DNA from: a virus
Length of the DNA stretch: 64,000 bases
Strand: one strand, 5' to 3'
Virus record (IMG/VR): IMGVR_UViG_3300025121_000886
Span: 1-64,000 of that record
The notes beneath the pieces were generated by a model. It ran no database searches, was not told where the DNA came from, and was given only the letters and a program-made list of their open reading frames with translations. Positions 10,216-62,479 of this stretch are shown in pieces (within the stretch, counting starts at the first letter, position 1; each line of letters begins with the position of its first letter). A program made the translations under genes and the position numbers.

Positions 10216-10662
10216 ATGATAGATTATAATAAAATAGTAGAGAGATTAGATATTGTTTCTCAAGAATTTGAAAATAAAGGTTTCAAAGACTTGAGTTTTG
10301 AGTTAGATGAAATTTCACAATCTCTTTTAACAGAAAAAGATGCAGAAAATTCGGGTGATGATATTGATTCAATAAAGGAATCAGTATTTTTTTGGGTAGA
10401 TCAGTTAAGAAAAGATCACAAGGATTTTGGAGATTTAAGTTTTGTTAAAAGATATCTTAATAAAAAAGTTGGGGATAAAAAAGCTTTAGCTTCTCTAAGA
10501 TTATTGGATAGTTTAGACGAAAAAAAATATGCTGTTTTAATCTCTGAATATGTTACAGCCTGTCATAAGGGAAGTTATGCCACGATCGATAACAGTAAAG
10601 TTCATCCAGCTGCTTTGCATATGTGGGGAAATAGAGCATCTTTTAATGAATCTGATGAATGA
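10216..10662 (+). CDS. Hypothetical protein with shared N-terminal helix-G-helix tag
   Basis: RLDIVSQEFENKGFKDLSFELDEIS; strong AGGAGG RBS. Confidence 0.7.
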   Translation: MIDYNKIVERLDIVSQEFENKGFKDLSFELDEISQSLLTEKDAENSGDDIDSIKESVFFWVDQLRKDHKDFGDLSFVKRYLNKKVGDKKALASLRLLDSLDEKKYAVLISEYVTACHKGSYATIDNSKVHPAALHMWGNRASFNESDE

Positions 10663-10706
10663 GTTTTTCAATAACCACCCTCAATTTTTAGAGATGATGT
10701 TTATTT

Positions 10707-11096
10707 ATGACCTATGATAATTTTTCTGTTTGTGTTAATTGCCTTTCCCCCTGTTGTGCATTATACGCCATAAATGTTACAGATAAAGATATTGAACGCA
10801 TAATGCACATTGTGGGTAAGTCTGAATATTTTGTTAAAACTTCTCGGTGGGGTTTTCCTTACACACATCAAGTAAGGACTAAAAAGATAGATAATTGTGA
10901 TGGTTGGTGTTATTTCACAAATAGGGTAGCTAAAGGACATTATAATTGTGGAATATATGAATATAGACCAGAAGCCTGTAGAGCATTTAGCCCCATTAAT
11001 TGTCCTCATTATTATAAATATGAGGATGGTTTGATTGAAGTAAAAACAATATTAGCACATTTAAAATCAGAGACTATGAATAAGTCCACAAAATAA
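10707..11096 (+). CDS. YkgJ/FliB-like cysteine-cluster (CxxCxxxCC) protein
   Basis: CVNCLSPCC...C.F...CGIYEYRPEACRAF. Confidence 0.85.
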   Translation: MTYDNFSVCVNCLSPCCALYAINVTDKDIERIMHIVGKSEYFVKTSRWGFPYTHQVRTKKIDNCDGWCYFTNRVAKGHYNCGIYEYRPEACRAFSPINCPHYYKYEDGLIEVKTILAHLKSETMNKSTK

Positions 11097-11187
11097 AGTG
11101 GTTGGTTATTATGAAAAATAAGAAGACAAATTCAGAAAAAAGATAATTTTTTAGATAAAGAATATTTGCTTTTAAGGAGACAATATA

Positions 11188-11688
11188 ATGGCAAGTAACC
11201 CACATGGTGTTAAAGTTCAAAGTTTAGATTGGAGTCACAAATATGCTCCAACCACGATGACCTATCATGGCATCGTGTTAAAAATGGATGGAAGAGAAGT
11301 AGGCCGTATAACAAGCTGGAATCCTCAACCTTATGGACGAGATGGTGAGCATGTTTATGAGTTGTCCAAAACTACTTTTGGCCGACCAGTAGATTATGTT
11401 CCTGGAAAAAATAATACTTATACTATATCATGTAATCGTGTTGAAGTATGGCTCGATGAATTTGAGCGAGCGATTGGCTTTGATGATGTATGGGTTGATC
11501 TTTGTGATCAGAGAAGACCTTTTACAATTACAGAAACTCTTTATAAGGGTGACGTGAGATATAGAGAATGGACTTATACAGGATGCTGGATCACGAGCAA
11601 AAACCCCGATGCGTACGACGCTGAGGGTAATGCTAAAATTATAGTTTCAGCAGAAATTTCTTATGTAGCTCGTACAAAAACCTTATAG
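11188..11688 (+). CDS. Tail tube protein
   Basis: 166 aa after the sheath gene; VGRITSW...VYEL...DYVPG...WTYTGCWITS...AEISY tube-type pattern. Confidence 0.8.
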   Translation: MASNPHGVKVQSLDWSHKYAPTTMTYHGIVLKMDGREVGRITSWNPQPYGRDGEHVYELSKTTFGRPVDYVPGKNNTYTISCNRVEVWLDEFERAIGFDDVWVDLCDQRRPFTITETLYKGDVRYREWTYTGCWITSKNPDAYDAEGNAKIIVSAEISYVARTKTL

Positions 11689-11708
11689 AGTAATTTGGGA
11701 GACTTATT

Positions 11709-12101
11709 ATGAATTTACGAGAAAGAATAGAAGCGAGAAAAAAGAGACAAGCTTCTTTTAATACTTCTTATGTTAGAGTCTACCATGAAGATCCATTGCG
11801 CCTAAAATTTCTTTATGGTCTGGAAAATACAGAATCTTTAAATGACTTGAATATAAAAACAAGTAGATTGAAATTGTCTGTTAAAGCACTGCTAAAAAGT
11901 GCTTCTGGGAAATTTACTATTTCAAGTTTGAAGACCTTAGAAACCGGTGTTATCTTTGTCAAAGGTATTCACGGTGTTTTAGATGGAATGTATTTAACAA
12001 CTGATTATTTGATAGAGTTTCAAGATTTTGAAGGTATTGAAGAATTTGTAAATAATTTATCAGTATATGAAGATGAATTCAAGGTGCAGATAGCTAGTTG
12101 A
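11709..12101 (+). CDS. Hypothetical (possibly virion) protein
   Basis: GGGAGA RBS; basic leader ending RQAS. Confidence 0.6.
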   Translation: MNLRERIEARKKRQASFNTSYVRVYHEDPLRLKFLYGLENTESLNDLNIKTSRLKLSVKALLKSASGKFTISSLKTLETGVIFVKGIHGVLDGMYLTTDYLIEFQDFEGIEEFVNNLSVYEDEFKVQIAS

Positions 12102-12112
12102 TGAATATTTTA

Positions 12113-12313
12113 TTATATTTTCTCGCCTTCTATTATATTCAATATTTGTTTTAATTGATCTTCTGTCAGAGAATGTTTAATATCTTCAGTATTATATTTT
12201 TCAAAGAATGCTTTACAATAATTTACAAGTTTTTCAATTCTCTTTTTCTGAATCATATCCACATTTACAACAATTATAAATGGTATGTTCTTTAAAGCCA
12301 GGAATATCATCAT
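12113..12313 (-). CDS. Small hypothetical protein
   Basis: 66-aa ORF, true start uncertain. Confidence 0.35.
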   Translation of the reverse strand: MMIFLALKNIPFIIVVNVDMIQKKRIEKLVNYCKAFFEKYNTEDIKHSLTEDQLKQILNIIEGEKI

Positions 12314-12467
12314 AGGTGTCTAATGTGCATCCTTTTTTACATTTATGACAAAGATATCTTGTTGTTCTCACTTCTCCATGTCCAGCACCCCAACCAGCGT
12401 GGGGATAACACTTTGAAGTTAAGTCTTTTTTACAATTGGGACAATTTATTTTTTCACCTTTTATCAT
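12234..12467 (-). CDS. Small Zn-finger protein
   Basis: CPNC, CHKC, CCKC; AAAGGA RBS. Confidence 0.6.
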   Translation of the reverse strand: MIKGEKINCPNCKKDLTSKCYPHAGWGAGHGEVRTTRYLCHKCKKGCTLDTYDDIPGFKEHTIYNCCKCGYDSEKEN

Positions 12468-12548
12468 TTTTATCCTTTCTATGTAAAAATTTTGTTGTTG
12501 TTCAACTTTTTACAGATTTTTTGAAAAATGATTATATTTATGTAAAAA

Positions 12549-13958
12549 TCAATCCTCAAATAATTTTCTCATTGGCAGATAATTATATTTGATGAATCTG
12601 CTTATTCTATTTCTTGCCATTTCAACATAACTTGGATTTAACTCAATCCCTATAAAATTTCTCAACAATTTTTTAGCCATTATACCTGTCGTCCCGCTAC
12701 CCATAAATGGGTCTAAAACTATTCCAGGAATAAATTTTGAATTACAAGAACATTGAGAATATCCTTGAAATTCTGCGCTCGAATAGACAGTAGGATTATG
12801 ACCTTGTTTTAATCTCTTTTCATTTTCTGTATATACTTCTAATTCAAAAAATCCACCCAATGGTGTTTTAGCATTGGGTATCCCTTTGAAACCTAATATA
12901 CCTTCAGGGTTATTGGTTGAATACAATTTCCTTTTTAGTTCTCCACATTTTTCACAAACATATTCGGGGCAACCGGCTAATATAGGAGTTTCAATCAATT
13001 TTTCTGGAAATACGGCAAAATGGGCTTCTTTAGATGACGCTGGGTTTATGCTCCATACAGTTCTTTTGTTTCTACCATATAATCCATAACAATGTGTGTT
13101 TTCGGCATTTTCTCCCCTGTATTTATCAGCATTTGGCTTGCATGTATTCTTAGATCGACTTCCCCATTTAGACTTTTTATTTCTTTCATATTCAACATTT
13201 ATCGTCTTAAAGGGTTCGAATTGTTGTTCAAAATAATAATCTGGATTTTTAGAGAAAAAGAACAAATACTCAAAATCATTTGAAAATCGATCTTTAGCCG
13301 AACTCGGTAGGCAAGAAGGTTTATGCCAAATTATGGTATTTCTAAGAATCCAGCCTCTACTTATCATCTCTATGGCAAATCTAAATGGGATTAATAACAA
13401 GCTCTTTCTAGGGTAATCAATTTTAGGTTGTTTCCATTTATTAGCCTTAGCCTTTTTTCCTCTTACCCAATCTCCTCCAGCACCACCTGAATTAGAATAA
13501 GTATCTCCAAGGTTTACCCAGCAAGTTCCATCATCTTTTAGAACTCTATGAACTTCATCAAATATATCACAAAGATGGGTGATATACATATCAAAATGGG
13601 GCTCATTTCCTAAGGAGCCTTCCCAAACTCGACATTTTTTACAGCATCTTCCCAATGTTTTTGTCTGTCCAGCACCACTTCCTATAGCATTTTTGTATTT
13701 TGTTTGTTCTACTTGTCCCGGTTTTAAAGGTGTCATGTAATCATCAAATTCGTGATCACAATCGTTTTCTTCCCAGGTTAATGGTTTGGTATCATAATCT
13801 CTCAATCCATAATAGGGCGGTGAGGTTACACACACATCTAAGCTTTTTTCAGGCAATGTTCTTAAAACGTCAACAGCATGACCTTGTATTATTGTATTAA
13901 TGTGTGGTCTGATTATATTGTTTATTGAGCTTTGTTTATTTATCACATCTAGTGTCAA
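12549..13958 (-). CDS. Beta-class DNA methyltransferase (SPPY type, probably N4-cytosine) with Cys-rich inserts
   Basis: CVTSPPYYGLRDY, WVNLGDTY, HFAVFPEKL, VLDPFMGSGTTG, FIGIELNPSY. Confidence 0.92.
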   Translation of the reverse strand: MTLDVINKQSSINNIIRPHINTIIQGHAVDVLRTLPEKSLDVCVTSPPYYGLRDYDTKPLTWEENDCDHEFDDYMTPLKPGQVEQTKYKNAIGSGAGQTKTLGRCCKKCRVWEGSLGNEPHFDMYITHLCDIFDEVHRVLKDDGTCWVNLGDTYSNSGGAGGDWVRGKKAKANKWKQPKIDYPRKSLLLIPFRFAIEMISRGWILRNTIIWHKPSCLPSSAKDRFSNDFEYLFFFSKNPDYYFEQQFEPFKTINVEYERNKKSKWGSRSKNTCKPNADKYRGENAENTHCYGLYGRNKRTVWSINPASSKEAHFAVFPEKLIETPILAGCPEYVCEKCGELKRKLYSTNNPEGILGFKGIPNAKTPLGGFFELEVYTENEKRLKQGHNPTVYSSAEFQGYSQCSCNSKFIPGIVLDPFMGSGTTGIMAKKLLRNFIGIELNPSYVEMARNRISRFIKYNYLPMRKLFED

Positions 13959-13985
13959 TTTAATTTATCCTTAAAATAAGTTATT

Positions 13986-14021
13986 CTGACATACTCCCAA
14001 AGCTAAAGCATTTTGGGGTTC
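13986..14021 (-). mobile_element. Orphan IS200/IS605-family right end
   Basis: Minus strand GAAC-CCCAAAATGC-TTTA-GCTTTGGGAG-TATG-TCAG: guide tetranucleotide, imperfect hairpin and TATGTCAN terminus, as in the intact element at 51757-51788. Confidence 0.7.
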
Positions 14022-14053
14022 TAAAGTTGCTGCTCTTGTAATATTATATTTTT

Positions 14054-14935
14054 ATGGAGAAAACTTTGAAAATACCAGAGTTATTAAAAAGTTTAGATGA
14101 ATTAAAGCAAAAATATTCTTTAAATAAGAAGAATATTGATGAAGTAGTTAACAAAAAAGTTGTTGGATCGACCACCATACCACCTTTAATCATCCCCTCT
14201 AAAAAGGAACTTCGTTCGATCACAATGTTATTCAATAAGTTTGGAAAACATCTTTTATCGGAGGAGTTCGATACATTAAAACAATATGATAAAATCGTCA
14301 TCCTTATCCATACTCTTTCACAGGGTTTTGATAAATTATCTTCCTTGCCGGAAAATATGAATGTCTCAGAATTTTGTTATCTTTGTCATAAATTATTTGA
14401 ATTGGATTTTATATTAAAATGGTGTGAGAAGAAAAAGCGAGGTAATTTATCTTATGTTCTTAATGAGATTAGTGATGGTAATGTAAAGATTGATATATCG
14501 GATAAAGATCTTTATTTAAAACAAGTTGAAGATTTTTTTACTGGTGTTATCTCAAATCCTTTCAAGGATAAATTTCTTAAAAATGAATTAGCTGGAATTT
14601 TACGTTTACCGGTGGTGTGTAATAACTTTTATTTCTCAAATCAAGAATCTTTAGATTCTTATCAATGTGATTACATTTTAAATCGATACCTTTTGATAAA
14701 GGATCAATTTTTATTGGGTATACCAGATGACTTAAAGGGTTATGAGGATATCTTTAATAAAATATGGTCTACCTTCAAACTTTTTTTGGTAAAGGGGGGT
14801 AACAATGAGTTTGATTCTTTATCGAAGTTTGAGATATCAGATAGCTATATAAACATCGACAATTATAATTATTGTCTTCTTTTCCCAAATTCTAGAATGC
14901 CTAAAATATTGAACTGGGGTATTTTTAATGAGTAG
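14054..14935 (+). CDS. Hypothetical protein in the tail module
   Basis: 293-aa ORF translationally coupled to the next gene. Confidence 0.65.
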   Translation: MEKTLKIPELLKSLDELKQKYSLNKKNIDEVVNKKVVGSTTIPPLIIPSKKELRSITMLFNKFGKHLLSEEFDTLKQYDKIVILIHTLSQGFDKLSSLPENMNVSEFCYLCHKLFELDFILKWCEKKKRGNLSYVLNEISDGNVKIDISDKDLYLKQVEDFFTGVISNPFKDKFLKNELAGILRLPVVCNNFYFSNQESLDSYQCDYILNRYLLIKDQFLLGIPDDLKGYEDIFNKIWSTFKLFLVKGGNNEFDSLSKFEISDSYINIDNYNYCLLFPNSRMPKILNWGIFNE

Positions 14936-15500
14936 CAATGCTATTGATATATTATATGATCTGAAAAAACATTTCGGTCTATGCTCAGAAAATTTATTTT
15001 CAGTCATTGATGCTGAGCATAAATGGAGTTTTTACCCCCCGGATAGTTTAGGTATAGAAATACTATTAAAATTGACAGATATTAATAGGGATGTTTCCTC
15101 ATATAAAATAGCTATTGTTGCATCTTTTCTGGCAAAAATAGATGAAGAACCAATCTATAAAATAATTGGAATAAATATTGATAAAAAGTTAGGAGAGACA
15201 GATAAATCTATAAGATTAGCAACCTCTTCTGATTGGTTTGACATGCTACAGAAAGAGTTTAAGCCCGATCTGGTTGACAAATTATATGAACATTATGATG
15301 AAAAATATGGTGAAAGATTAAAATTGTTATTATCTTCTGATACAACATCTTATGTGTGCAAAAAGTGCAAGAGTAATTATAGTCTGAAGAAGAAAGATAT
15401 TGTGTACTTTTGTCAAAAATGTGGTAACAAACTATTTCTCTTAGATGAAAAGAACAATCCACAGGACCCTTTGGTGCGCTCACGGAAGACCCTAGCTTAG
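14928..15500 (+). CDS. Tail assembly chaperone (G-like) with C-terminal Zn ribbon
   Basis: Lies between tube and tape measure; CKKC...CQKC; ends across the slippery site C CCT TTG. Confidence 0.7.
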   Translation: MSSNAIDILYDLKKHFGLCSENLFSVIDAEHKWSFYPPDSLGIEILLKLTDINRDVSSYKIAIVASFLAKIDEEPIYKIIGINIDKKLGETDKSIRLATSSDWFDMLQKEFKPDLVDKLYEHYDEKYGERLKLLLSSDTTSYVCKKCKSNYSLKKKDIVYFCQKCGNKLFLLDEKNNPQDPLVRSRKTLA

Positions 15501-16036
15501 AAGTCCGTGGGCGCGTTTTAGCATATTGTGGAATACTCCCGACTGATCCTGTTGTTAAGGATATGACAACCTCACTGTGGCATTTTATGTGGGTTTGGAT
15601 AAAAAAACTGAAAGATGAGGAGTTTACCCGTTTTGAAAAATCAATGGGTATATTGTGGGATGAATCTGATTTCAATGCATTTTCTCCCGGTCCAGAGAGT
15701 ATGAATAAACCAGAAAGCAGTTCTATTAGGATTCCAGTTACATTTGCATGTGATCCGACTTTATACAAGTTTTTAAAGGAAAAAGCAGCTGCTACTGCCG
15801 CAAAGAGGATGAATATGGGTTTAGAGGAGGGTGCGCCTATTGTAGAATTAGGTGAACTCCCCAGACATATGTTTGTTAAAGCGATGCGTATGTTAGAGGG
15901 AGGGGTTGATCCTCTAAGTTATATAAAAAAGTTTAAAGAAGAAAGAACACAAAATATAAAAAATGAAAAAATGGGAGAGATCGACAATGAAGTAGAAGAA
16001 AATGAGCCTGAAATAGACGAGATTAGTGATACTTAA
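14928..16036 (+). CDS. Tail assembly chaperone GT-like -1 frameshift fusion (about 369 aa)
   Basis: The -1 frame is open from 15449 to 16036 and reads PFGALTEDPSLEVRGRVLAYCGILPTDPVVKDMTTSLWHFMW into ORF 15563..16036. Confidence 0.8.
15467..15514 (+). promoter_or_regulatory. -1 programmed ribosomal frameshift signal
   Basis: In-phase XXXYYYZ heptamer CCCTTTG (15467-15473) plus an 11-bp stem GCGCTCACGGA/TCCGTGGGCGC (15476-15514). Confidence 0.8.
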
Positions 16037-16068
16037 ATGATCTTAATTTATTAATTATGAGGTAAATC

Positions 16069-16881
16069 GTGGATACAAAAAATAAAAAACCGTTTGTTAA
16101 AAATATCATAGCTGATGATGAAAATCCCCTTAATAGATTGGGAGAAGTTGTGGATGTTAGAAAATTAGAAGAGATTGAGATTAAAAAGAAGAAAGCTGAA
16201 TTGGCAGGTGCTTCTGGATTACTCCCTCTCACAGAAGAAGAATTTGAGAAAATAGCTTCTCAACCAGATCAACCTCCTTTAGAAGAGGCTTCTAATAAGG
16301 CCGTTTTAGCAGAAAAAGAAGTTGGAGAGAATAACACTTCTATTAAAGATGAGACCTTGATAATACGGGAAAAATCAAGTATTCTAATGGAAAAACTTAA
16401 AAAGAAGTTCAGTCTAGAATCTGTTAAGATTGTTGAGGAAGTATCTGGTATAAATTTTACTTTTAAGGGATTATCTAAAGCAGAGGTAGAATGGGGTACT
16501 GAAATGGTATCTCGTTGGGCATATTCTGAGACAGGTTTTAATCTTGGTCTAGAAGACGTTGTAGCTGCATCTTCTATATGGGAAATAGATGGGATGCCCA
16601 CCCATGAATTGTTTGATGTTAAAAAACGTGAAGATGATTCAGATTTATCTTTACATATTACAACCGCAGACAAGGTTTTAGTGTTCCTTCGAGAGCAATC
16701 TAATAGTAAGTTGATAGATATACTTTATAATATTTATCAAAATAAAATTGAACCAAAATTAAAAATTTCAGGGGTGTTAGAGTATATATGTACAAAACAT
16801 GATATTACTTATGTTATGTATGAAAAAAAACCAGGTAATTATTTTTGTAAACTTTGTGGAGAACCATTATTATCCACTTGA
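16069..16881 (+). CDS. Second tail-chaperone paralogue with Zn ribbon
   Basis: Aligns with 14928..15500 (IDGMP/IDEEP, LIDILYNIY/LVDKLYEHY, YFCKLCG/YFCQKCG). Confidence 0.65.
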   Translation: MDTKNKKPFVKNIIADDENPLNRLGEVVDVRKLEEIEIKKKKAELAGASGLLPLTEEEFEKIASQPDQPPLEEASNKAVLAEKEVGENNTSIKDETLIIREKSSILMEKLKKKFSLESVKIVEEVSGINFTFKGLSKAEVEWGTEMVSRWAYSETGFNLGLEDVVAASSIWEIDGMPTHELFDVKKREDDSDLSLHITTADKVLVFLREQSNSKLIDILYNIYQNKIEPKLKISGVLEYICTKHDITYVMYEKKPGNYFCKLCGEPLLST

Positions 16882-16900
16882 AAATAGGAGTAAATAATTC

Positions 16901-17290
16901 ATGAGTAAAACCCACCAAGAACATCTTGCCCACATTGTAAATATAACAGAAAATCTTGATATGGAACAAGCTAATAGAGTAAGAACTGCTTTTATTAAAG
17001 ACTTTGTAGGAAAAGGAACGTCTTTTCTCATCGGTCGTTTAGCCTCTATGTTTAAACTTACTATGATAGGTTCATCTATAGGATTTAGATTTACTGGAAA
17101 TCCTCATGGATTTACAAAATATTTGTTGAAATCTTTTTTAGAAAAGAAGTTTGGTCCTGTAACGATAAGGACATATAAAAATTTATTAGAGATCGTGATG
17201 ACTCTAGATTTCACAAATAGTCCGGAGGTGAGAGAGCATATAAAACAAGATCTGGAAACTTTTAAGAAGAATAATGGGGAAAAAGAATAG
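16901..17290 (+). CDS. Hypothetical protein
   Basis: 129 aa, AGGAG RBS. Confidence 0.65.
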   Translation: MSKTHQEHLAHIVNITENLDMEQANRVRTAFIKDFVGKGTSFLIGRLASMFKLTMIGSSIGFRFTGNPHGFTKYLLKSFLEKKFGPVTIRTYKNLLEIVMTLDFTNSPEVREHIKQDLETFKKNNGEKE

Positions 17291-17348
17291 GGGTTTAAGA
17301 CGGTTTTTAGAACCAATGTTTAAAATTTAAAGATGTGAGTATTTTAAT

Positions 17349-20300
17349 ATGCCTGGTCCAAATATACCTCCAAATATACCACCTGATAATACGCCACCTG
17401 CTTCGAATACAGCCTCTATTTTGGAGTCATTACGTCAAAAAAAGGCATTAGATGACACCAAAAAAGCTAAAAGGGATTTAGATATAGCTAGATCTAAACT
17501 AGAACGTGCAAAAGTTTCAAAAAATGAAATTTCTAAAAAGTCTGGTTTGGGTAAAACATCTACAGTTGACTTAGCTAATATATCTAAGGCAAATACAGCG
17601 GTGGTAGAGGCTGCCCGAAATGTAGATATTTTAACCAAGGCTTTTGAGGGTTATAGGAAAACATTAGGTACCGTTGTTAAAGATACGGGTGGTTTAGGTT
17701 TTGATAAAACATCACAAGACATAAAACTTTTTAATATGTCTTTGGAAAAAACACAAAAGAAATTATCTTTAACCAGGTCAGCGATTGATCTATACTCCAA
17801 AGCAGATAAAGCTACTGGAAGTACGGGCTTTGGTGGTTGGGGTGGTATAGTTACAGATGCTGCTGATCAAGCTGTAGAATCAGTAAAAAGGGCTGGATCT
17901 GAAACCGCTGCTTCTGCTGGAAAAACTTATTCACAAATAGCTCGACGGAGAAAGACTTATTTTTTAGAAAGTTTTGTATATGGATCAGCTCTTACAAATT
18001 CTGTTAAAGCTACAACAGAAGCTATGGGAGATCAAAAATCAGTAACAGAATCTATGGTAGATAGTTTAAATGTGTTTGGCACAAAATTATCTAATTTGGT
18101 TACTGGTCAACATGCTGTAGCTGATACATCAGGATCTATAGCAGATGGTTTGACAGGTATTGGAGAAACAGCTGCTACAACAACAGTAAAATTAGCTTTA
18201 TTGAAACCTAAATTTTATGGTACTGTCCAGATGATGAAGGCTGGTGGTATGGCCATAAAAGAAATATTCAAGAAAACAAAAGAATTAATACCAACCTTGA
18301 CCGCAGCGGGGTTGGCATTAAAGGCCGTTTCTGATATTTCTGAATCAGGTGAATCTGCCTTAAAGAATTTTTATCGAGCTGGTGTAGAACCAGCTCCAAA
18401 GATGGCCAAAACTTTAGGTGAATTGTCCAAGCGTATGGGGACAAACATAAAGTTGAATGAGTTAGCAGCAAGGGCGGCAGTCGATTTAGGTATGGAATAT
18501 GATCAGGTCAGAGAATATGCTCAAAAGTTACAATATGAACTAAATAATACAGATCCAGCTTTGTCTTCAGCAGAAGCTATGGCTAAATTGACCAAACAGA
18601 CAATATTAGCAGCGAGAGCCCTGGAGATGGATGCTGGAGAAGCTATTCAGTTTGTGACAACCAGGACAAACAAATTTGGTGAGTCTTCTGAAGAAGCTGT
18701 GGGTCAACTGAAGGGGATAGTTGATCAGATAAGAAAGACAAATGATTCTGCATTAAAAGCCGGTTTTACTCGTGGTGATCTTTTTCCTGAAGATTTGAGT
18801 AAGCTTATAATTCAAGCTTCTAACGAGACTGGTGCTTATGGTCAAAATCTTGAATTATTGACTCATATATCCACAAAAACTTTTCAGACTGCTAAAAAAG
18901 CTGGAATGACCTATAATGAATCTGTAGAAGGTACTCAAGCAGTTATGAAAGCTTTGACGAGTACTGAAAATGAATTCTTGCGACAGGATGTTGGAACAAA
19001 GTTATATAAGAAGCTTATAGCAGGAGGAGATGCTTATATAGAGCAATTAGGTGATATAGCCCCAGAACAGAAAAAGAGATTAAGAGAAATAGTTGAAGAT
19101 GTTAAAAATGGAAAATCTGCTACCTATGATGTTCAACAATCTATTTATAGCTATCTTTCACAAACTACAGAGGGTGTAAAATTACAATTAGCAGATATGC
19201 AGAAGTTCGGTGATTCAGGCATCGGTGGAAAGATGCTGGAAAATTTATATGGTGTTTCTGCCTCGGGTTCTAAAACATTACAAATGATGTCTCGCGGTGG
19301 TATGTTAAAAGGTCTTATCTCAGATTTTGAGTCTTTACGTGGTAAAAACAAAGGGATGTTAAGTGAGACAGAGGCTCAGATGATGAGATGGCCTAAAACG
19401 TGGGCTGGAACATTTGCGGGCTATCTAAGTTCTATGGGTATGGATTTAGAAAAAGGACTTGTTGGGAGTCCTATTATGCAATATTTACAGAGGGGTGAAG
19501 AAATAACAAACAACATTAAAGAAAGTATAATAGGAACTTTTAAAAATCCAGCTATTACAGCTACAATTGGTCTTTTGATGGCAGCCGGAACTGTTCTAGC
19601 CCCATTATTAGCCGGTAAGTTGGTGAAGAGTGTTACAGGTGTAGATATCACGGGTCATATAAAGAAAGGTGTTGTGGGTGGTTTTGAGAAGTCTAAAGAA
19701 ATATATAGTAAGGTTAAGAATGAAGGTCTGAAAAAGACTTTATCTGATGGTGTCCAATGGGCAGGTAAAAAAAACAGAGAAGTCTATGGTAAATTAGCAA
19801 AGACTGGTCCTTTTAAAGCTATTATTGGTGTTGGTAATACTGTAGGAGATGCTATATCAAGTGCAATGAGAACCGCCGGTTCTTTTGTTGCTAAACAATT
19901 TTATAATGCTATCCATGGTAAAGGTATCACCGGAGCTAGAGAAAAATTAGGGAAGTTTGGAGAAAAGGCTAAGAATGTTGGAAAACAGGGTGTGGAAAAA
20001 GTAAGAAGTGGTCTTGGTCTATCAGAAAGAGGAAAATATGATAAAGGCGGTAGACGTGCTACACCTGAAGAAAGGGAAATGTTAAGAAGGACGGGTCTTC
20101 CCGGTTTTAATCATCCAGGTTTATCAGGTGAAGACATTTCTGGACGAGGGGGTAGGAATTCTTCGAGAAGGAGTAGCCTGAGTAATCTTGCAGATAAATC
20201 AAAAAAATTTGGTAGAAGGGGTTTGGATTCAGTTAATAAGTTTGGGAGAGGGGCTGAAGGGTTTGGTAAGAGAGGTCTTGGTGCTGTGGGTAAATTCGGT

Positions 20301-22988: not shown

Positions 22989-23012
22989 TTGAGATATAAT
23001 AACAATTAATAA

Positions 23013-26675: not shown

Positions 26676-27068
26676 CTACTTGTTATTTTGCAGAGAGTTT
26701 TTCTTCTGAACCAATTTTTTCTTTTTATTTCTGAGAACTTCCAACTTTTTTTCTTTTTCTTTTAGGGTTGTATTTAATGTATCAACTTTTTTTCTCAAAG
26801 GGGCAAGGGCTTGTTCACTTTTCCCCTTTTCTTTTAATATATTTATCTTTTTGTATATTTGTTTTTTATTTTTTCTAATATACATAATGTCTTTATAAAC
26901 ACTTTTTATAGCACCAATTATTGAAATAATTAATAGAGCGATTTTACCAATGGCCTTTAATGTGTCCACAACAGTAGCTTCTTTTTGTTGTAATCCTTCA
27001 AGAAAAGAGGCTTCTTTATGACGTTTTTGGTTAATTAACTCTTCTTTTAATATTTTTAGGTTTGGCAT
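26676..27068 (-). CDS. Tagged basic coiled-coil protein with a hydrophobic helix
   Basis: LKEELINQKRHKEASFLEGL tag, AIGKIALLIISIIGAI segment, Lys-rich tail. Confidence 0.6.
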   Translation of the reverse strand: MPNLKILKEELINQKRHKEASFLEGLQQKEATVVDTLKAIGKIALLIISIIGAIKSVYKDIMYIRKNKKQIYKKINILKEKGKSEQALAPLRKKVDTLNTTLKEKEKKLEVLRNKKKKLVQKKNSLQNNK

Positions 27069-27071
27069 AAC

Positions 27072-27100
27072 ATTATCCAGTAACAATCTTTAATTGTCAA
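27072..27100 (-). promoter_or_regulatory. Sigma70-like promoter TTGACA-N17-GATAAT
   Basis: Perfect -35 hexamer, 17-nt spacer, 5/6 -10 match; very close to ATG 27068. Confidence 0.4.
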
Positions 27101-27114
27101 TACAATACTTTTTC

Positions 27115-27480
27115 TTAAACATTCATATTATCAAGTTTGGCCTGGTCTAGACGGATTGAGTTATTTATGGCTTTTACAGTTGCTCTTAACCCCATTATTT
27201 TTACTTTATTTAATGCTCCACCCGCTTTTTCTAATTGTTCAATTTTAACAAATATCTTCTTTTTTTGTTCTCTCATTTTCTGGATATTTTTCTTAACAGC
27301 ATCTTTTTTCTTGTTTTTCCCCCCTAATCCTAGATAATCTTTTGTATGGATTAACTCTTTCTTTACCTTTTTGAGGTGCTTTTTAATGCCCGCTTGATGC
27401 AATAATTGTAAATAAGAAGCTTCTTTATAATTTCCATTTTTTTCGAGTTCAATCATTATTTTTTCGATTGTGTTAGACAT
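27115..27480 (-). CDS. Tagged basic coiled-coil protein
   Basis: IEKIMIELEKNGNYKEASYL tag; MREQKKKI shared with 60748..61191. Confidence 0.65.
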   Translation of the reverse strand: MSNTIEKIMIELEKNGNYKEASYLQLLHQAGIKKHLKKVKKELIHTKDYLGLGGKNKKKDAVKKNIQKMREQKKKIFVKIEQLEKAGGALNKVKIMGLRATVKAINNSIRLDQAKLDNMNV

Positions 27481-27493
27481 AAATATTTTCTCT

Positions 27494-37135: not shown

Positions 37136-38053
37136 ATGAATATCAAAAAAATTTTCAATGCATTGGGTGATATGCATATAGTTTCAGCCAGACTCAAGAC
37201 TCGCGGAGAAGATGGGTTAGCTTCTCGTATAGAACGTCTTGCAGATAAGATGCTGAATGAGGTTGTTGATGAAGATGAAGCTTCAGACGACCGAAAGAAT
37301 AGAGTAGCATCTATGTTTGAAGAGGGAGTCACACCAGAATTTGTAGATGCAGAAGACAGTTATTCTGGCGATGATTATTTAGAAGAATATCCCATAGACG
37401 ACGAAGAATATATTGATGAGGAGTCTCCCGTTGAAGATTTATCGTTAGATGAGTACCCGGTAGAAGACGAAGGTTTTATCGATGAAGAACTCCCGGTTGA
37501 AGATGAATATTATGAAGATGAAGACCTTAATCTTTCTGATGAATATGCTACAGAAGACACATTTTCTGAAGACGAATATTTAGGAGACAATTATTCAGAA
37601 GATGAATATCCTATAGAGGATGAGAATTTAGATTATAATGATAACGAGGATTTTGATCTTGAGAGTATTGATCTTCAAGCCAGTAGAGTATTTGATGTTT
37701 CTGGTAGAAGGATAAGATCGTCAGCTGATCTTAGAACAGCTGAAGTAGATTTTACTCAAAGTGAGTTTATTACAGCAGCAGGAAAAAAACCGAGTAGATC
37801 TGAAGTTGCCCGTTCTTTTAGAAAGATGAAACAAAAAAAGGGAAAAAAAAAGACTTATGTCTGTTGTGAGAAACCTAGATTAAAGACCACTCTTAGCGGT
37901 GGGAAAAAGATATGGTATTCAAACTGCAAGTATAAAGCAAAATCTTCAACTGGAAAACCAATGTTAGCAAGTGTTTTTCGAGTTGTAGGGAAGGACCCTA
38001 GAAAAAAACCCAGATTTATCATGATGCATAATAAAAAAATGAAGTATTGTTAA
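37136..38053 (+). CDS. Tagged bipolar acidic/basic internal head protein
   Basis: IVSARLKTRGEDGLASRI tag, long D/E/Y repeat region, Lys/Arg-rich C-terminus; lies just before the major capsid gene. Confidence 0.6.
   Translation: MNIKKIFNALGDMHIVSARLKTRGEDGLASRIERLADKMLNEVVDEDEASDDRKNRVASMFEEGVTPEFVDAEDSYSGDDYLEEYPIDDEEYIDEESPVEDLSLDEYPVEDEGFIDEELPVEDEYYEDEDLNLSDEYATEDTFSEDEYLGDNYSEDEYPIEDENLDYNDNEDFDLESIDLQASRVFDVSGRRIRSSADLRTAEVDFTQSEFITAAGKKPSRSEVARSFRKMKQKKGKKKTYVCCEKPRLKTTLSGGKKIWYSNCKYKAKSSTGKPMLASVFRVVGKDPRKKPRFIMMHNKKMKYC
37381..37630 (+). repeat. Degenerate coding tandem repeat (EYPxEDE units)
   Basis: EEYPIDDEEYIDEESPVED / DEYPVEDEGFIDEELPVED / DEYPIEDE. Confidence 0.65.
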
Positions 38054-39459: not shown

Positions 39460-40053
39460 ATGAAGTTAATTGAAAAAATAAATTTGGTGATGAAAAAAGC
39501 TCAAGCGCGCGGTGAGACAAATACAGTGATTGAACTTCAAAGAATAGCATCTGAATTAAAACCGATAGATAACAGAAATATCGATAGAAGTTCAGAATCT
39601 AAGATTTCTAATTATGATGCTGATGCTGATGTCTTTATTAGAGAAATTAAGGAAGTTGCTAATTCACTGAAGGCCAAAGGCGAATTTGCTTATGCAAAGA
39701 ATTTAACGGCTGCCGCTCAAGAATTTGTAGAACCACGCGAAGCTTCAACTTCTATAAACACAAAAGAAGATAGAGAAGCCAAAGAATGGGCAGGTCTTAT
39801 ATCAGAAGTAGCTGATGTGGATGAAAAATTGGCTAAAAAATTAATTACAGCCCTTTATGAAGTAGAGTCAGCTAAAAAGAGTAAAGCCAAAAAAAATAAA
39901 AAAGCTGAAGACGTAGAAGCTGAAGATGAAGAAGATACTTCTGAAGAAGACGAGGATTATTCTGAAGAGGATGAAAAAGATTATTCAGAAGATGAAGAAG
40001 ATACCGAAAAAGATGGAAAGAAAAAAGCTAAGAAAAAGGGAAGAGAAAACTAG
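39460..40053 (+). CDS. Protein with two or three copies of the tag and acidic/basic tails
   Basis: KAQARGETNTVIEL and VANSLKAKGEFAYAKNL; DYSEED repeats flanked by Lys runs. Confidence 0.7.
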   Translation: MKLIEKINLVMKKAQARGETNTVIELQRIASELKPIDNRNIDRSSESKISNYDADADVFIREIKEVANSLKAKGEFAYAKNLTAAAQEFVEPREASTSINTKEDREAKEWAGLISEVADVDEKLAKKLITALYEVESAKKSKAKKNKKAEDVEAEDEEDTSEEDEDYSEEDEKDYSEDEEDTEKDGKKKAKKKGREN

Positions 40054-40636: not shown

Positions 40637-41530
40637 ATGCACATAGAAACTGAAAAATTAGCCGCTAAAAAGTTGGATTCTATTATTTATAAAATAGATA
40701 AGGTCGCATCAGATTTTGAAGAAAAAGGATACACAGATTTATCTACTATGTTAGATATGGTATCTCATGAGATATTGGCCGGTATTGAACCTTCTGAATC
40801 AAATCCTCCTATTGGATTGAAGGGTGCATCTAATGTTTTATTATGGCAAGATATGATGAAAACTTATGGGGATGAAATAAAAAAATATCCAGACACACGA
40901 ACACGTTGGGCTGCCGCTTTAGCTATTCTGGTTAATGTAGCAAAGCGTAAAGCTATCCCCATTCCTATTCCAGAACTTGTTAATATAGTAAACCCTAAGG
41001 CAGAGATTGTAACTGTTGTGCTGGAACTTGATCAAGAAGCTAAGAAGTTTTCAAGTAAAGTCATAACTTTTGTTAAATCTCAATTTCATGCAATTCCTTA
41101 TAGAAATCTAAAAAAACAACCTGCTAATTGTGGTTTTGAGAAAAAAAATAAACTTTATTATTTTGGATATTATTTATGTCTTGAAATACCTCGGGGGAAA
41201 GAGGTACCTGTTCAAGATGTAGGGTCTGATTTAAGAGAAGCTTTAATGCAAAAATTTAGAATGAAATCTACTGAATTTGATGGAGCTCTCTATAAATTAA
41301 CAGGTGAACGTGACGAGAATTATTCTTATATCACATTCACTGGTGAGGGGGAAGCCGCACAGGTCTGGTTAACCATGTATTTTTACTATTATTTTACAGA
41401 AGATCAAGTAAAAGCAATGTATGATTATATGTATGGGGTTGGTAAAAGCACTCGTTTAACGAATGTTAATACTTTAACAAGAGCAATTCAACGTGTGTTA
41501 AACACCTGGATTAAACGAGGTATTGAATAA
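40637..41530 (+). CDS. Tagged hypothetical protein
   Basis: IDKVASDFEEKGYTDLSTMLDMVS; GGAGG RBS. Confidence 0.7.
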   Translation: MHIETEKLAAKKLDSIIYKIDKVASDFEEKGYTDLSTMLDMVSHEILAGIEPSESNPPIGLKGASNVLLWQDMMKTYGDEIKKYPDTRTRWAAALAILVNVAKRKAIPIPIPELVNIVNPKAEIVTVVLELDQEAKKFSSKVITFVKSQFHAIPYRNLKKQPANCGFEKKNKLYYFGYYLCLEIPRGKEVPVQDVGSDLREALMQKFRMKSTEFDGALYKLTGERDENYSYITFTGEGEAAQVWLTMYFYYYFTEDQVKAMYDYMYGVGKSTRLTNVNTLTRAIQRVLNTWIKRGIE

Positions 41531-47589: not shown

Positions 47590-48036
47590 ATGGATAACAA
47601 AAATATTTATAATTTATTAAAAGACATCAAAAAAGATGGCTTTTCTGAAGAGGCATCTCTTATAAATAAAGCATTAAAAAAATGGGGTGATAATCATAAG
47701 GTTATAGCCTCATTTGAGAATACATCTGAGCAAGAAACATTAAACTTAAGAACTTTGCGACAATGGATTTTAAATGATTACCGAAAAGTAGCATTTGAAA
47801 TTCATAATGATGGAGTTTTGATTGACCCTGTTGATCAAGAATCTTTTATGCAAGGACCAGCTATGTTAATCACAGGTCATGGTTTTCGTCCTGTTGAGAT
47901 AGCAGTTAATGTTTTTGGGGAGGTTGGTATTAATTATCAAGATGGTGCTTGGTCTAGGAGAAAGGTTCACTCTGAAAATATCATGTCTTTTTATGAGAAA
48001 CTTAAAAGAATTTTGAATGGACGTAAGGGGGATTAA
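47590..48036 (+). CDS. Tagged hypothetical protein
   Basis: LLKDIKKDGFSEEASLI...KVIASF. Confidence 0.65.
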   Translation: MDNKNIYNLLKDIKKDGFSEEASLINKALKKWGDNHKVIASFENTSEQETLNLRTLRQWILNDYRKVAFEIHNDGVLIDPVDQESFMQGPAMLITGHGFRPVEIAVNVFGEVGINYQDGAWSRRKVHSENIMSFYEKLKRILNGRKGD

Positions 48037-50498: not shown

Positions 50499-51743
50499 TT
50501 GTATAAAACGCAATCAAATCAGATTAAGAATATGAATAAAGACACCTATAATCTTTTAAGAAGGTTGTGTTGGCATTCAGCGCGTTTGTACAATTACGGT
50601 CTATATACTGTAAGACAGAATTATTTTGAGACGAAGACATATTTACCTTATGTGCAAAATTATCATTATTGTAAGACCAATGAGAATTTTAAGGTTTTAC
50701 CAGCAGCTGTAGCACAGCAGACGTTAAAGGTTGTAGATAGGAGCTTTAAGTCTCTTTTTGGGCTTTTGAATGCTAAGAAGCACAGTAAATATCAGAGTCG
50801 TGTGTCTATCCCACATTATTTACCAAAAGATGGATATTTTCAGGTCATGATACCTAACAATGGGTTTCAGATTAAGGGTAATGAGATAAACATAGGTATA
50901 TCGAGGTTTTTGAAGGAAGATACTGGGATTAAAAATATAGTATTAGATTTTCCGACACAGATTAATGCTAAAGATGTAATAGAAGTAAGGATAATACCGC
51001 AACAGAAGGCACATTACTTTAAAATGGAGGTGGTATATGAGGTAAAAGAACAAGAATTAAAGCTAGAGCATAAAAATGTTTTATCGATTGATATAGGTCT
51101 AAATAATTTAGCGACATGTTTTGATACAAAGAACAATAGGGCTTTCATCTTAGATGGAAGGCGTTTAAAATCAATAAATTACTATTGGAATAAACAAAAC
51201 AGTAAGCTACAAAGTATCAAAGATAAACAAAACATCAGGAATTATACGAAACAACAATTTTTACTGAAGAGGAAGAGAGAAAATAGGATTAAAGACATAA
51301 TAAGAAAGAGCTCTAAGTATATTTCTGATTATTGTATTAAGAATGACATAGGGACGATAATTATAGGACACAATAAAGGTTGGAAGCAAGACATTAATCT
51401 TGGAAGGGTGAATAATCAGAAGTTTGTACAGGTACCTTTTGGATATTTGATGTCAAGCCTTGAGTCTAAATGTGAAGAGTTTGGTATGAAGTATTCAGAG
51501 ATACAAGAGTCCCATACTTCTCTATGTTCGGCTTTAGATAATGAGGAAGTTAAACATCATGATGTTTATATGGGGAAGCGTATATACAGAGGGCTTTTTA
51601 GAAGTAGAGAAGGAAAGCTCGTTAATGCTGATGTTAATGGTGCTCTAAATATTGCTAGGAAGTCAAAAGTAACTGCAATGGAGGTAACTTCTGAGCAGGT
51701 AATGGGTATTGTGGCATACCCTGTAAGAATAAGGGTATTTTAG
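50499..51743 (+). CDS. tnpB: RNA-guided endonuclease TnpB
   Basis: ARLYNYGL, SIDIGLNNLA (RuvC-I), IIIGHNKGWKQ, IQESHTS, NADVNGALNI (RuvC-III). Confidence 0.95.
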   Translation: MYKTQSNQIKNMNKDTYNLLRRLCWHSARLYNYGLYTVRQNYFETKTYLPYVQNYHYCKTNENFKVLPAAVAQQTLKVVDRSFKSLFGLLNAKKHSKYQSRVSIPHYLPKDGYFQVMIPNNGFQIKGNEINIGISRFLKEDTGIKNIVLDFPTQINAKDVIEVRIIPQQKAHYFKMEVVYEVKEQELKLEHKNVLSIDIGLNNLATCFDTKNNRAFILDGRRLKSINYYWNKQNSKLQSIKDKQNIRNYTKQQFLLKRKRENRIKDIIRKSSKYISDYCIKNDIGTIIIGHNKGWKQDINLGRVNNQKFVQVPFGYLMSSLESKCEEFGMKYSEIQESHTSLCSALDNEEVKHHDVYMGKRIYRGLFRSREGKLVNADVNGALNIARKSKVTAMEVTSEQVMGIVAYPVRIRVF

Positions 51744-57637: not shown

Positions 57638-58015
57638 ATGTCATTTAAACTCCCCAAAAAAGAAGTTCTTTTTGAGCTATCTAAAATAGCTCAAGATTTA
57701 GAACACCTAAATAAACCAAATTTAGCTGAAAAACTTGATATGGCCTGTAATATATTAGATGTTTCTCCTAAAGATGAGGACATAAAAAAACTGTTTCTCA
57801 AATATTTTTCAGAGGCTTCAAGTCATTTTAATTCTATTAGTGATTTTTATAACCCTGATTTTCATACAAAGCAGATTAATAATATAAGAAAATTATTAGA
57901 TAAGATAGAAAATGAACTCAAAAATCCATTAACTTCTTATAATCATGAAAATAAAATAGTTAGTTATACCATATTAAACCTATTCAGCTTAATTTTAAAA
58001 GAAGCATCTGATTAA
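57638..58015 (+). CDS. Tagged hypothetical protein
   Basis: LSKIAQDLEHLNKPNLAEKLDMA; GAGG RBS. Confidence 0.6.
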   Translation: MSFKLPKKEVLFELSKIAQDLEHLNKPNLAEKLDMACNILDVSPKDEDIKKLFLKYFSEASSHFNSISDFYNPDFHTKQINNIRKLLDKIENELKNPLTSYNHENKIVSYTILNLFSLILKEASD

Positions 58016-59411: not shown

Positions 59412-59481
59412 TATTTATATTCTCGATATTCTTAACTTCATAAGTTTTTGAGAACTTTGCCAATATAGAGGGGGAAAAATA

Positions 59482-60192: not shown

Positions 60193-60211
60193 ATAATTTA
60201 AGGAAAATAAT

Positions 60212-60706
60212 ATGAATATAAATAGTTCATTCTCAACGGTAATAAATGGACTTAAAGTTAAAGGAAAACATTCTTTAGCAAAAAAAGTTCAGGAAAAAAT
60301 GAAAAAGTTAATGGCAGATGTTATAAAAACTGCTGGCTTTAAATTCACAAGGATATGGATAGATAGTCATCATGGACCCTCTTTAGCTATTAATTTCAAA
60401 GATGAATTACATTATGTAGGTGGTGCGAACTCAAGAGATATGGAAGTTGTTGTTCAAGGAAATGATTTGTATATTGATACACATGTTCCAAATCAAGACA
60501 TAAGGTCTTGTGAACTTCATGAACTTGGTAAAGGTGATATCCTCAGAGCTGAAATATTTGAAAGAGGAAGTGATCAATATGGAGAAAAAGTAGAAATATA
60601 CTCTTGTACCAGAGAAATGACCTTCCAGGGCGAAGATTATACAGAAGAGATTGCTAATATGGATACAAAAGAATTTATAGATTATGCAGAAAACTATATG
60701 TTTTAA
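60212..60706 (+). CDS. Tagged hypothetical protein
   Basis: VINGLKVKGKHSLAKKVQE...IKTAGF. Confidence 0.65.
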   Translation: MNINSSFSTVINGLKVKGKHSLAKKVQEKMKKLMADVIKTAGFKFTRIWIDSHHGPSLAINFKDELHYVGGANSRDMEVVVQGNDLYIDTHVPNQDIRSCELHELGKGDILRAEIFERGSDQYGEKVEIYSCTREMTFQGEDYTEEIANMDTKEFIDYAENYMF

Positions 60707-60747
60707 CATAATTCTAAAATTTTTATGTCAAATATTGGAGAAATTAT

Positions 60748-61191
60748 ATGAATCAATTAAATACCCTAAAAGATATATTTAGAACAGCCCAGATGCTTGA
60801 AAAAGATGGTCATGGTATAGAATCTATAAAACTATACTCTAACATTTTGAATATGCTTGGAGAGAAAGATCCCTGCAATAAAATCATAAAAGATATTGAG
60901 GAAAAATATGAATCATATCAAGACCATTTTCAGAAAACAGGGTCTGAAAAAGTTAGTCCTAATCAAAAAAAGAGACAGTCTTTACAAAAAAGCATAGACA
61001 AAATTGTAGAGATCATAAGTGCTATGAGAGCAGCTAGAAAACCTTTATTAGCTAAATTACATGGCAGTATTTTACCAAAACTTGCTTTAGGACTTCGTTT
61101 AAAATTAAAGATATTAGCTGATAAAATAAAAAAGTTAGAAGAAAAAGTAGAAAAGTTACGAGAACAAAAGAAAAAAATTGCTGACAAATAA
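60748..61191 (+). CDS. Tagged basic coiled-coil protein
   Basis: FRTAQMLEKDGHGIESIKL; LGLR and LREQKKKI shared with 27115..27480. Confidence 0.65.
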   Translation: MNQLNTLKDIFRTAQMLEKDGHGIESIKLYSNILNMLGEKDPCNKIIKDIEEKYESYQDHFQKTGSEKVSPNQKKRQSLQKSIDKIVEIISAMRAARKPLLAKLHGSILPKLALGLRLKLKILADKIKKLEEKVEKLREQKKKIADK

Positions 61192-61196
61192 TTGAA

Positions 61197-61955
61197 ATGT
61201 TCTCAATCTTAATCCCAACCTGTATTCAAAGACTTTCTATAACAAAAGATTTAATACTTCAGATCATAAAGACAAATCCACAAACCATAAAAGATAATCT
61301 ATTAAAAATATACATGACATTACACATCCCCCGTCTTGATAAGCATAATGCCAAGATTATAGAAGAATTATCTTATATAAAAGAGATAAAAATAATCTAC
61401 CCCAAAAATACTCACATCTCAAAAAACTTAAATATTATGTTAACAACAGCCTTACATGAAAATATATCAGATGAATTATATCTCATTAAAATAGATGACG
61501 ACACATATCCACTAGAAAATGATTGGTTAAATGTATATAGAGAAGTATATAATAGAATACCGGGTGTCGGAGTATTATATTCTTGTAAAACTTTAACTGA
61601 AATATATGAAAGGCTTCTTAATAATATTGGAATAACAAGTCAAGAAAAAAGCGGTATGCTTATGTTTTTCAATAGAAAAATAATTAATAAATTGGGTGGT
61701 TTTCAGGAATTGCTTGATCCTTATGGTAATGAAGACCTCGATTTCTTACTTCGTTCTGAACTTTCCGGTCTTAATAATTATGGAGTTCTTAGAACGGGAG
61801 ATCACGGTATCTCAGTAAAACATGGAAAAGAAGTATATCCCAAATTAAACAGTTGCTTTGATAAAAACGCTAGAGAATTAGCACAAGAAAAATTTCAGAG
61901 TATAAAAAAAGAATATCTGACAAAAAACAGATCAACAAAAATATATTTGGAGTGA
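61197..61955 (+). CDS. Glycosyltransferase family 2 (GT-A)
   Basis: SILIPT, IKIDDD (DxD), LGGF...YGNEDLDFLLR. Confidence 0.85.
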   Translation: MFSILIPTCIQRLSITKDLILQIIKTNPQTIKDNLLKIYMTLHIPRLDKHNAKIIEELSYIKEIKIIYPKNTHISKNLNIMLTTALHENISDELYLIKIDDDTYPLENDWLNVYREVYNRIPGVGVLYSCKTLTEIYERLLNNIGITSQEKSGMLMFFNRKIINKLGGFQELLDPYGNEDLDFLLRSELSGLNNYGVLRTGDHGISVKHGKEVYPKLNSCFDKNARELAQEKFQSIKKEYLTKNRSTKIYLE

Positions 61956-62479
61956 TTATGGGAAATAATATAAAAACAATAGAATTTGAAAATTTTTTGG
62001 TGTCTAAAAAAGACATGCTAGAAGGTCTAAAATCAATAAAAACGGGAAGATCTAGCAATGAGCCATTATCGTTACCCTCTAAAGTGATAGAAATTCCGGA
62101 CAGAAAAGTATTTTTATACATAGGCTGTATAAAAAAATTGGTGTCCATGATGCTCTATGGAAAATTGTCTACAAAGTGTGAAATGCTTGATATGAACGAG
62201 TCCCAATATTATGAGGTACCTTCTAAGGGAGAAGCATTCATTTTCGATCCTGATGAAAGATATGGTGGTCTAGAAAAGATTATGAAGATGTCTGATCTCG
62301 ATGCATTATCAGCACAGATAAAATTAAATAAACCCCTTAAGAAAATAAAACCCCGTCAAGCAAATTATGATAAAAAACCAACTCTTAGCGACATAGTCTA
62401 TGAACTTGAAATACGTGGGAAGACTGTTTTAGCCGATAAACTCCAAGAAAAAATTCAGGATATTAAAGAGGAGATATAA
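61952..62479 (+). CDS. Hypothetical protein with the tag at its C-terminus
   Basis: LSDIVYELEIRGKTVLADKLQE. Confidence 0.6.
   Translation: MIMGNNIKTIEFENFLVSKKDMLEGLKSIKTGRSSNEPLSLPSKVIEIPDRKVFLYIGCIKKLVSMMLYGKLSTKCEMLDMNESQYYEVPSKGEAFIFDPDERYGGLEKIMKMSDLDALSAQIKLNKPLKKIKPRQANYDKKPTLSDIVYELEIRGKTVLADKLQEKIQDIKEEI

Follow-up and report, generated by a model that had tools for sequence, protein, structure and literature searches.

How giant phages pick the dozens of proteins packed in their heads is, to our knowledge, largely unknown outside T4. The question is raised by the virus record IMGVR_UViG_3300025121_000886 of IMG/VR (93,150 bp), the first 64 kb of which were studied here and are called the window. 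In this window, an original prediction had pointed out a helix-Gly-helix pattern shared by about 11 diverse proteins, and had proposed that it is a portable tag recruiting cargo to the prohead. Is this tag a genuine module, where does it come from, and what would it be for? We find a homologous module of about 37 residues in ten supported copies, predicted to fold as a helical hairpin. Since related huge phages have the same module in proteins that are acidic and scaffold-like, its probable function is that of a docking label in virus assembly.

Support for a shared module

All 12 strings on which the prediction relied are present at the genes named for them. Shine-Dalgarno-like sequences back the start codons at 40637, 37136, 39460, 57638 and 27480, and the module begins 1-14 residues into the protein, in agreement with the near-N-terminal position described (carriers 40637, 57638 and 27480 correspond to the open reading frame (ORF) labels 40619, 57596 and 27115). 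Described over 21 residues, the resemblance is weak. Indeed, in leave-one-out tests only five of the 11 proteins scored above the mean best score of a shuffled proteome. For this reason, the 21-residue profile was replaced by one of 39 residues. Hydrophobic spacing continues on both sides of the 21-residue stretch, and the conserved unit, made up of a helix, a K/R-G turn and a second helix, spans about 37-39 residues.

With the 39-residue profile, six carriers left out in turn were recovered at 9.0 to 22.4 bits (Table 1), and the best non-member reached about 6-7 bits. The highest of these scores belongs to 85116, a 13th copy located outside the window. When whole subgroups were left out, 10216, 40637, 60212, 61952, 85116 and 57638 were recovered at 7.5-10.5 bits. 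A "foreign-only" profile was then built as a hidden Markov model (HMM) from 34 segments, all from other genomes. It matches eight proteins of the record, always at the tag site, with scores of up to 28.7 bits, as compared with a maximum of 4.7 bits over 20 shuffled proteomes and of 1.5 bits on reversed sequences. A profile restricted to the N-terminal hairpin of megaphage proteins (see below) still scores 20.4 bits on 40637 and 16.6 bits on 10216, whereas 20 shuffled proteomes reach at most 6.1 bits.

All-against-all BLASTP comparison of the proteome gave three pairs aligned at the tag: 10216 and 40637 (E 1.6e-6), 47590 and 85116 (E 0.01), and 60212 and 61952 (E 0.027), the last matching the N-terminus of the former to the C-terminus of the latter. 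Such within-genome pairs support 60212 and 47590 in addition to the eight foreign-profile sites. The tag of 60212 is a basic variant (net charge +6) missed by the foreign-only profile (1.7 bits); that of 47590, which this profile does not recover either, reaches 4.4 bits in the leave-one-out test (p 0.007). Finally, an iterated profile run over 7,027 ORFs from this genome and 85 related loci gave 20 matches of at least 12 bits, all on coding strands, and none on the reversed sequences.

At the level of sequence, the homology of the module across its carriers and its significance are thus established by the leave-out and foreign-only profiles. The pattern originally described holds for the ten supported copies, in a longer form; it does not hold for 60748 and 27068, which neither the leave-out profiles nor the foreign-only HMM recover, and for which a chance look-alike is the best reading. 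The product of 27068 has a transmembrane-like segment and shares the motif KEAS[YF]L with its neighbor 27480.

Predicted shape and portability

For the product of ORF 10216, AlphaFold2 predicts a helix (residues 4-20), a turn (21-23, K-G-F) and a second helix (24-46), with a predicted local distance difference test score (pLDDT) of 80-89; the remainder of the protein is modeled poorly. For a related protein of 108 aa having two hairpins, one hairpin is predicted at each end (pLDDT 84-89). A Foldseek search with the model of the two-hairpin protein found nothing at E <= 0.001, the top matches being helical bundles and tetratricopeptide repeats (TPRs), and an ESM Atlas look-up gave only scores of at most 0.83, to hypothetical viral proteins. 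The module is modeled as a folded, hairpin-shaped unit. Its turn may vary, as in 57638, where N-K replaces G. A polar, probably flexible linker comes after it; in 27480, the tag is followed by a lysine-rich helical tail.

Supported copies are located at a protein terminus, with the sole exception of the second hairpin of 39460 (copy b), 58 residues from the start. The case of 40637 illustrates how the module may move. This gene sits between homologues of 40144 and 41546, and at the same position four relatives (L007, L009, L012 and L053) have a gene of 78-88 aa that aligns with 40637 from about residue 55. These syntenic orthologues are devoid of the tag and start where it ends. Together with the predicted hairpin and the occurrence of both N-terminal and C-terminal copies, they favor the view already put forward in the original prediction, that of a folded module portable to either terminus.

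Carrier bodies are otherwise unrelated in the all-against-all BLASTP comparison, as had been stated, apart from one domain of about 60 residues (..NPP....W....D..). This domain is common to 40637 and 10216 (window 40799-41000 and 10345-10500, respectively) and to the free-standing 78-88 aa proteins of the relatives. Pfam detected nothing common among 22 carriers. Ten carriers that were looked up, on contigs of up to 464 kb, have automatic names at most, mostly "hypothetical protein". Searches of tags and carriers against Pfam and PHROGs gave no family, the only PHROGs matched being small and unknown (phrog_17638, E 3e-5; phrog_38542, E 3.5e-4). Three metagenomic proteins (P0093, P0094 and P0060) each contain two nearly identical tag copies about 190-330 residues apart, and look like fused tandem units, each headed by a tag; P0093 and P0060 are encoded on one and the same 413-kb contig.

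Rarity and relation to repeat proteins

Out of 1.84 billion representative proteins, only 62 match the profile at E <= 0.001. About 38 of them contain the module in full, in most cases N-terminally in proteins of 97-460 aa, and about 24 are long repeat proteins with partial matches. Five cultured jumbo phages, totaling 1.15 Mb, contain one match, as compared with 11-13 in the present 93 kb. This lone match (phiRSL1 NC_010811, 149180-149254, minus strand, 16.6 bits) falls within the portal gene ORF211 and may be due to chance. Phage G has no profile match, and tblastn with the tag-bearing proteins P0104 and P0080 against 50,697 GenBank phage records returned nothing. These searches portray a rare and lineage-restricted module.

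In the PDB, the best profile matches are designed and consensus TPR proteins, each domain scoring below 11 bits. In Pfam, the best match is to the pentatricopeptide repeat (PPR), on the 60212 tag only, with 19.2 bits (E 0.0014) for a cut-off of 25; the other tags have no match. The module and these repeats have in common a helix-turn-helix with the same hydrophobic spacing and a Gly in the turn. However, the module is found in single terminal copies, or in two to three copies with long linkers between them, and not as a tandem array of at least three; moreover, members of the family resemble one another far more than they resemble TPRs. That the module is a generic TPR is largely refuted by its rarity, by the low TPR and sub-threshold Pfam scores and by the absence of a tandem array. 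No description of the module was found in the open-access literature searched. It appears to be an undescribed, lineage-restricted domain without a Pfam family, probably used for docking.

The acidic multi-hairpin proteins of related huge phages

The module also occurs in relatives. G001 (188 kb, searched over the whole record) resembles the present record, with about ten tag copies on small proteins. Eight of these, whose context was examined, are beside connector, terminase, portal, protease and capsid genes. One G001 locus (87118-88725, or L084:9118-10725) has an 89-aa ORF ending in a tag followed by TGA and, one codon on, a 444-aa ORF in the same frame; read-through of this TGA would put the tag ahead of the 444-aa protein.

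G007 (392 kb) and G009 (424 kb), two complete megaphage genomes, have the module in a single kind of protein only, which is poly-acidic and 330-430 aa long. Its N-terminal hairpin is acidic; then come a basic stretch, another hairpin and about 200 residues of poly-Asp/Glu, and the very C-terminus is formed by a hairpin that is basic. In closer relatives, a protein of 106-146 aa (hairpin, acidic linker, hairpin) is encoded one or two genes after the capsid gene; such a two-hairpin protein is present after the capsid gene in L001-L005, L013, L014 and L022. Its counterpart here is the acidic protein 39460, encoded immediately downstream of the major capsid gene. The first hairpin of 39460 (copy a) draws its support only from these homologues, since it matches the N-terminal hairpin (..RGET..) of the two-hairpin acidic proteins. 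Immediately upstream of the major capsid gene, 37136 consists of a hairpin, about 130 aa of acidic repeats and a basic, Cys-rich C-terminal domain, the latter having a homologue in L029, a 173-aa gene that immediately precedes the capsid gene. Two carriers therefore do flank the major capsid gene, as had been noted. PHROGs holds no family for any of these acidic hairpin proteins, whether from megaphages, of the two-hairpin type, 39460 or 37136.

The hairpin at the N-terminus of the acidic proteins is clearly homologous to the tags of 10216 and 40637, which resemble it rather than the C-terminal one. The apparent home of the module is a conserved poly-acidic protein of a huge-phage clade, which holds it in two to three copies. 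The composition and architecture of these multi-hairpin proteins recall those of scaffolding proteins or of assembly chaperones.

Genomic setting

The record is classed as a provirus in IMG/VR and its completeness is estimated by CheckV at about 30%. It is therefore probably a fragment of the genome of a much larger, uncultured giant phage. The portal protein is 28-34% identical to portals of cultured jumbo phages, for example Yoloswag, RHEph12, phiRSL1 and PaBG. Relatives of the major capsid protein, found by an alignment-based search of IMG/VR, have 32-49% identity and are encoded on uncultured contigs of up to 424 kb. Positions of the head genes and of the tag copies are collected in Table 1; 47590 lies directly 3' of the head-tail connector gene. 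ORF 34749, which had been named as a scaffold, has no tag, and no evidence supports its being a scaffold.

Table 1. Head genes and tag copies (window positions, except for 85116; scores of the leave-one-out test and of the foreign-only HMM in bits).
Feature	ORF	Position	Strand	Leave-one-out	Foreign-only	Other support or remark
Large terminase		29169-31421				head module
Portal protein		31819-33786	+			phrog_16240, E 5e-100
Prohead maturation protease		33912-34694	+			phrog_18299, E 3e-48
Conserved virion protein		36243-37004				head module
Major capsid protein		38183-39343	+			phrog_2522, E 1e-50
Head-tail connector gene		46268-47461				head module
Tag	10216-10662 (148 aa)	10228..10344	+	19.4	18.5	megaphage-only HMM, 16.6 bits
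Tag	27480-27115 (121 aa)	27370..27486	-	9.0	20.9	
Hairpin	37136-38053	37154..37270	+		6.6	shuffled maximum, 4.7 bits
First hairpin (copy a)	39460-40053	39460..39576	+			weak in HMM tests
Second hairpin (copy b)	39460-40053	39628..39744	+		15.2	
Tag	40637-41530 (297 aa from ATG)	40676..40792	+	16.1	28.7	
Tag	47590-48036 (148 aa)	47590..47703	+			BLASTP, residues 5-31 of 47590 and 85116, E 0.01
Tag	57638-58015 (125 aa)	57659..57775	+		14.1	leave-group-out, 9.5 bits
Tag	60212-60706 (164 aa)	60212..60328	+	13.0		leave-group-out, 8.9 bits
C-terminal tag	61952/61958-62479	62366..62476	+	13.3	8.8	BLASTP to 60212
Tag, outside the window	85116-85571	85116-85229 (genome)		22.4	8.1	heads the ORF
Claimed tag	60748-61191	60757..60873	+			no independent support
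Claimed tag	27068-26676	26961..27077	-			no independent support at the site in any leave-out test

In the major capsid protein, the N-terminal ~55 residues (window 38183-38400) lie ahead of the fold matched in PHROGs, and at their end is a conserved h-h-A-[SG]-N-G-E-x-N-A motif, a candidate maturation site. No tie between this motif and the tags could be made.

A probable tail block extends over window 6637-23746, with a gene order syntenic with G007, G008, G009 and G013. ORF 6637 (1188 aa) is about 50% identical to megaphage proteins and has no PHROG, Pfam or PDB match. It was considered as a tail sheath, a positional guess to which the PDB and PHROG searches gave no support. ORF 11188 (166 aa) has weak tail-tube matches. 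The block also holds the paralogues 14928 and 16069, and ORF 17349, a glycine-zipper protein of 1879 aa that may be the tape measure.

Other genes deserve mention. A TnpB-like transposase (window 50499-51743; phrog_506, E 1e-36) is found within the structural block, flanked by a tRNA region and an amidase/peptidoglycan-binding endolysin-like gene (51900-53297). Two paralogous N6/N4 DNA methylases, 43% identical, are encoded on the minus strand at window 12549-13958 and genome 77939-79141. A Type ISP-like restriction-modification protein of 1015 aa is encoded at genome 73379-76426 on the plus strand (Type_ISP_C, E 5e-85).

Proposed role of the module

If the module is a docking label, what does it address? 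The reading that we favor, with a probability of roughly 40%, is that it loads its carriers into the capsid or prohead. The hairpin would be a self-contained protein-protein docking module. In the present lineage and in G001, it would have been copied, at the N-terminus and once at the C-terminus, onto about ten small proteins that are unrelated and whose genes lie among those for virion assembly. There, it would most likely share its partner with the acidic protein's own hairpins; this could be the prohead core, the inner face of the capsid protein, or a further hairpin, with which it would form a four-helix bundle. In this way, tagged proteins would enter the prohead as it assembles, as the T4 internal proteins do by means of their capsid-targeting sequence (CTS), and the tags might later be trimmed by the prohead protease. 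Partner, capsid entry and cleavage are inferred. In favor of this reading are the position of 37136 and 39460 on either side of the capsid gene, the acidic multi-hairpin proteins, the eight of about ten G001 tags located at head genes, and the T4 precedent. Given the homology of the 10216 and 40637 tags with the acidic N-terminal hairpin, the simplest reading is that small proteins took the docking hairpin of an assembly protein and join the same complex. More tentatively, the huge-phage clade may use the ~37-residue hairpin of its own acidic protein as an address label that loads changeable small effectors for injection. Such a system would be modular, larger than the T4 CTS and structurally different from it, and usable at either protein end.

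Several observations weigh against loading into the head. In G007 and G009, both complete, the acidic protein is the sole carrier. In the megaphages, the gene of this protein is within an apparent tail gene block, which points to the tail as much as to the head; the module may equally well serve assembly at large. The 85116 copy stands amid opposite-strand genes of unannotated function, and other copies are near tailspike-like and glycosyltransferase-like genes. No common cleavage motif follows the tag in about 55 aligned instances. With a predicted template modeling score of 0.37, AlphaFold2 does not place the two hairpins of the 108-aa protein confidently relative to each other. The profile does not recognize the coat-binding C-terminal hairpin of P22 gp8. 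Finally, in the GenBank, phage G and jumbo phage searches described above, no relative with virion proteomics was found to bear the tag.

Among the alternatives, a general assembly or oligomerization module is a possible, if tentative, explanation. Hairpins would pair in four-helix bundles or with a chaperone, and serve head or tail morphogenesis with no packaging of cargo. Single helical hairpins usually need a partner that buries their hydrophobic face, and the two to three copies of the acidic protein are oppositely charged, the N-terminal hairpin being acidic and the C-terminal one basic. Furthermore, the megaphage acidic gene lies between homologues of 11188 and of the tape-measure-like gene, downstream of a 6637 homologue. 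This is the position, between the tube and tape-measure genes, where myophages usually encode tail-assembly chaperones. The near-identical internal duplicates of P0093 and P0094 also fit this explanation. However, the lack of confident hairpin-hairpin packing in the AlphaFold2 model speaks against pairing; many carriers are small, diverse in sequence and without sign of a structural role; and the layout of the carriers, in which tag and flexible linker precede a body that varies, is rather that expected of an address label.

It is rather improbable that the hairpin is a handle for a non-virion hub of the host or phage, such as a chaperone, protease or polymerase, placed on small accessory or host-takeover proteins. 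Carrier bodies are indeed fast-evolving small proteins without Pfam families, 85116 is outside the recognized structural block and some copies adjoin a glycosyltransferase-like gene. But carriers, here and in G001, are overwhelmingly within virion-gene blocks and on their strand (that of 85116 as well), and the module is common to poly-acidic proteins encoded beside capsid or tail genes.

Finally, a generic amphipathic TPR/PPR-like hairpin with a Schellman-type K-G cap, recurring by chance in an AT-rich, Lys/Glu-rich proteome, would agree with the TPR and weak PPR matches, the partial matches in repeat proteins and the failure of 60748 and 27068 in every independent test, but is very improbable and largely refuted for the ten supported copies by the foreign-only and megaphage-only scores, far from the 4.7-6.1 bits of shuffles, by the sub-11-bit TPR domains, by the near absence of matches in cultured jumbo phages and by the terminal position of all supported copies except copy b of 39460.

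With a portable module common to scaffold-like and small proteins, candidates for packaging or for association with assembly could be listed directly in uncultured huge phages, and loading assays would have a defined peptide to work with. Even if it is not a capsid label, it would remain a docking domain of a single lineage, whose PHROG matches are weak and limited to short families of unknown function.

Comparison with known systems

The P22 scaffolding protein binds the coat protein via a basic C-terminal helix-turn-helix (10.1101/2022.12.13.520362). Like the module, this element of gp8 is a small helix, K-G turn and helix, and it is basic and placed at the extreme terminus, as is the C-terminal hairpin of the megaphage acidic proteins. 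The two-hairpin proteins encoded after the capsid gene show this arrangement next to head genes, whereas the megaphage gene is in a tail-like block. In contrast, gp8 has one copy on one protein, whereas the module is spread over many proteins, and the carrier tags resemble the acidic N-terminal hairpin rather than the basic C-terminal one. The gp8 hairpin was tried and rejected as a member of the family: residues 268-303 have no profile score, and no P22 entry appears in the PDB search. Thus, the resemblance is architectural only, an analogy and not family membership.

In the giant phage SPN3US, a propeptide of 111 residues at the N-terminus has been proposed to direct proteins into the prohead, as the T4 CTS does (PMC7411985). 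Both SPN3US, with its gp47, and the phiKZ-like phages belong to the giant myophages; they have a prohead protease of the T4 type and numerous internal or ejection proteins (PMC7411985). No common sequence module has been reported for their propeptides, whose cleavage sites were mapped by mass spectrometry. Here, conversely, a shared module is evident, and it is known from sequence alone.

T4 provides a functional precedent. Its internal proteins (IPI-III and Alt) have a short N-terminal CTS in common, thought to dock on the prohead core, which the prohead protease removes (PMC7411985). In both cases, a shared N-terminal element is carried by several unrelated small proteins of one large phage. 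The present record encodes a prohead protease, but no motif common to the aligned instances comes after the tag; capsid entry is only proposed here. The T4 element comprises about 10-20 residues and is not a folded hairpin, whereas the present one has about 37 residues, is predicted to fold, is found within acidic proteins and at a C-terminus as well, and shows no recognizable cleavage site. The T4 CTS is portable to foreign proteins, and fusions to the P22 scaffolding protein are a second precedent for packaging tags. The engineerable tag imagined in the original prediction is therefore not new in concept, its precedent being the T4 CTS (PMC7411985).

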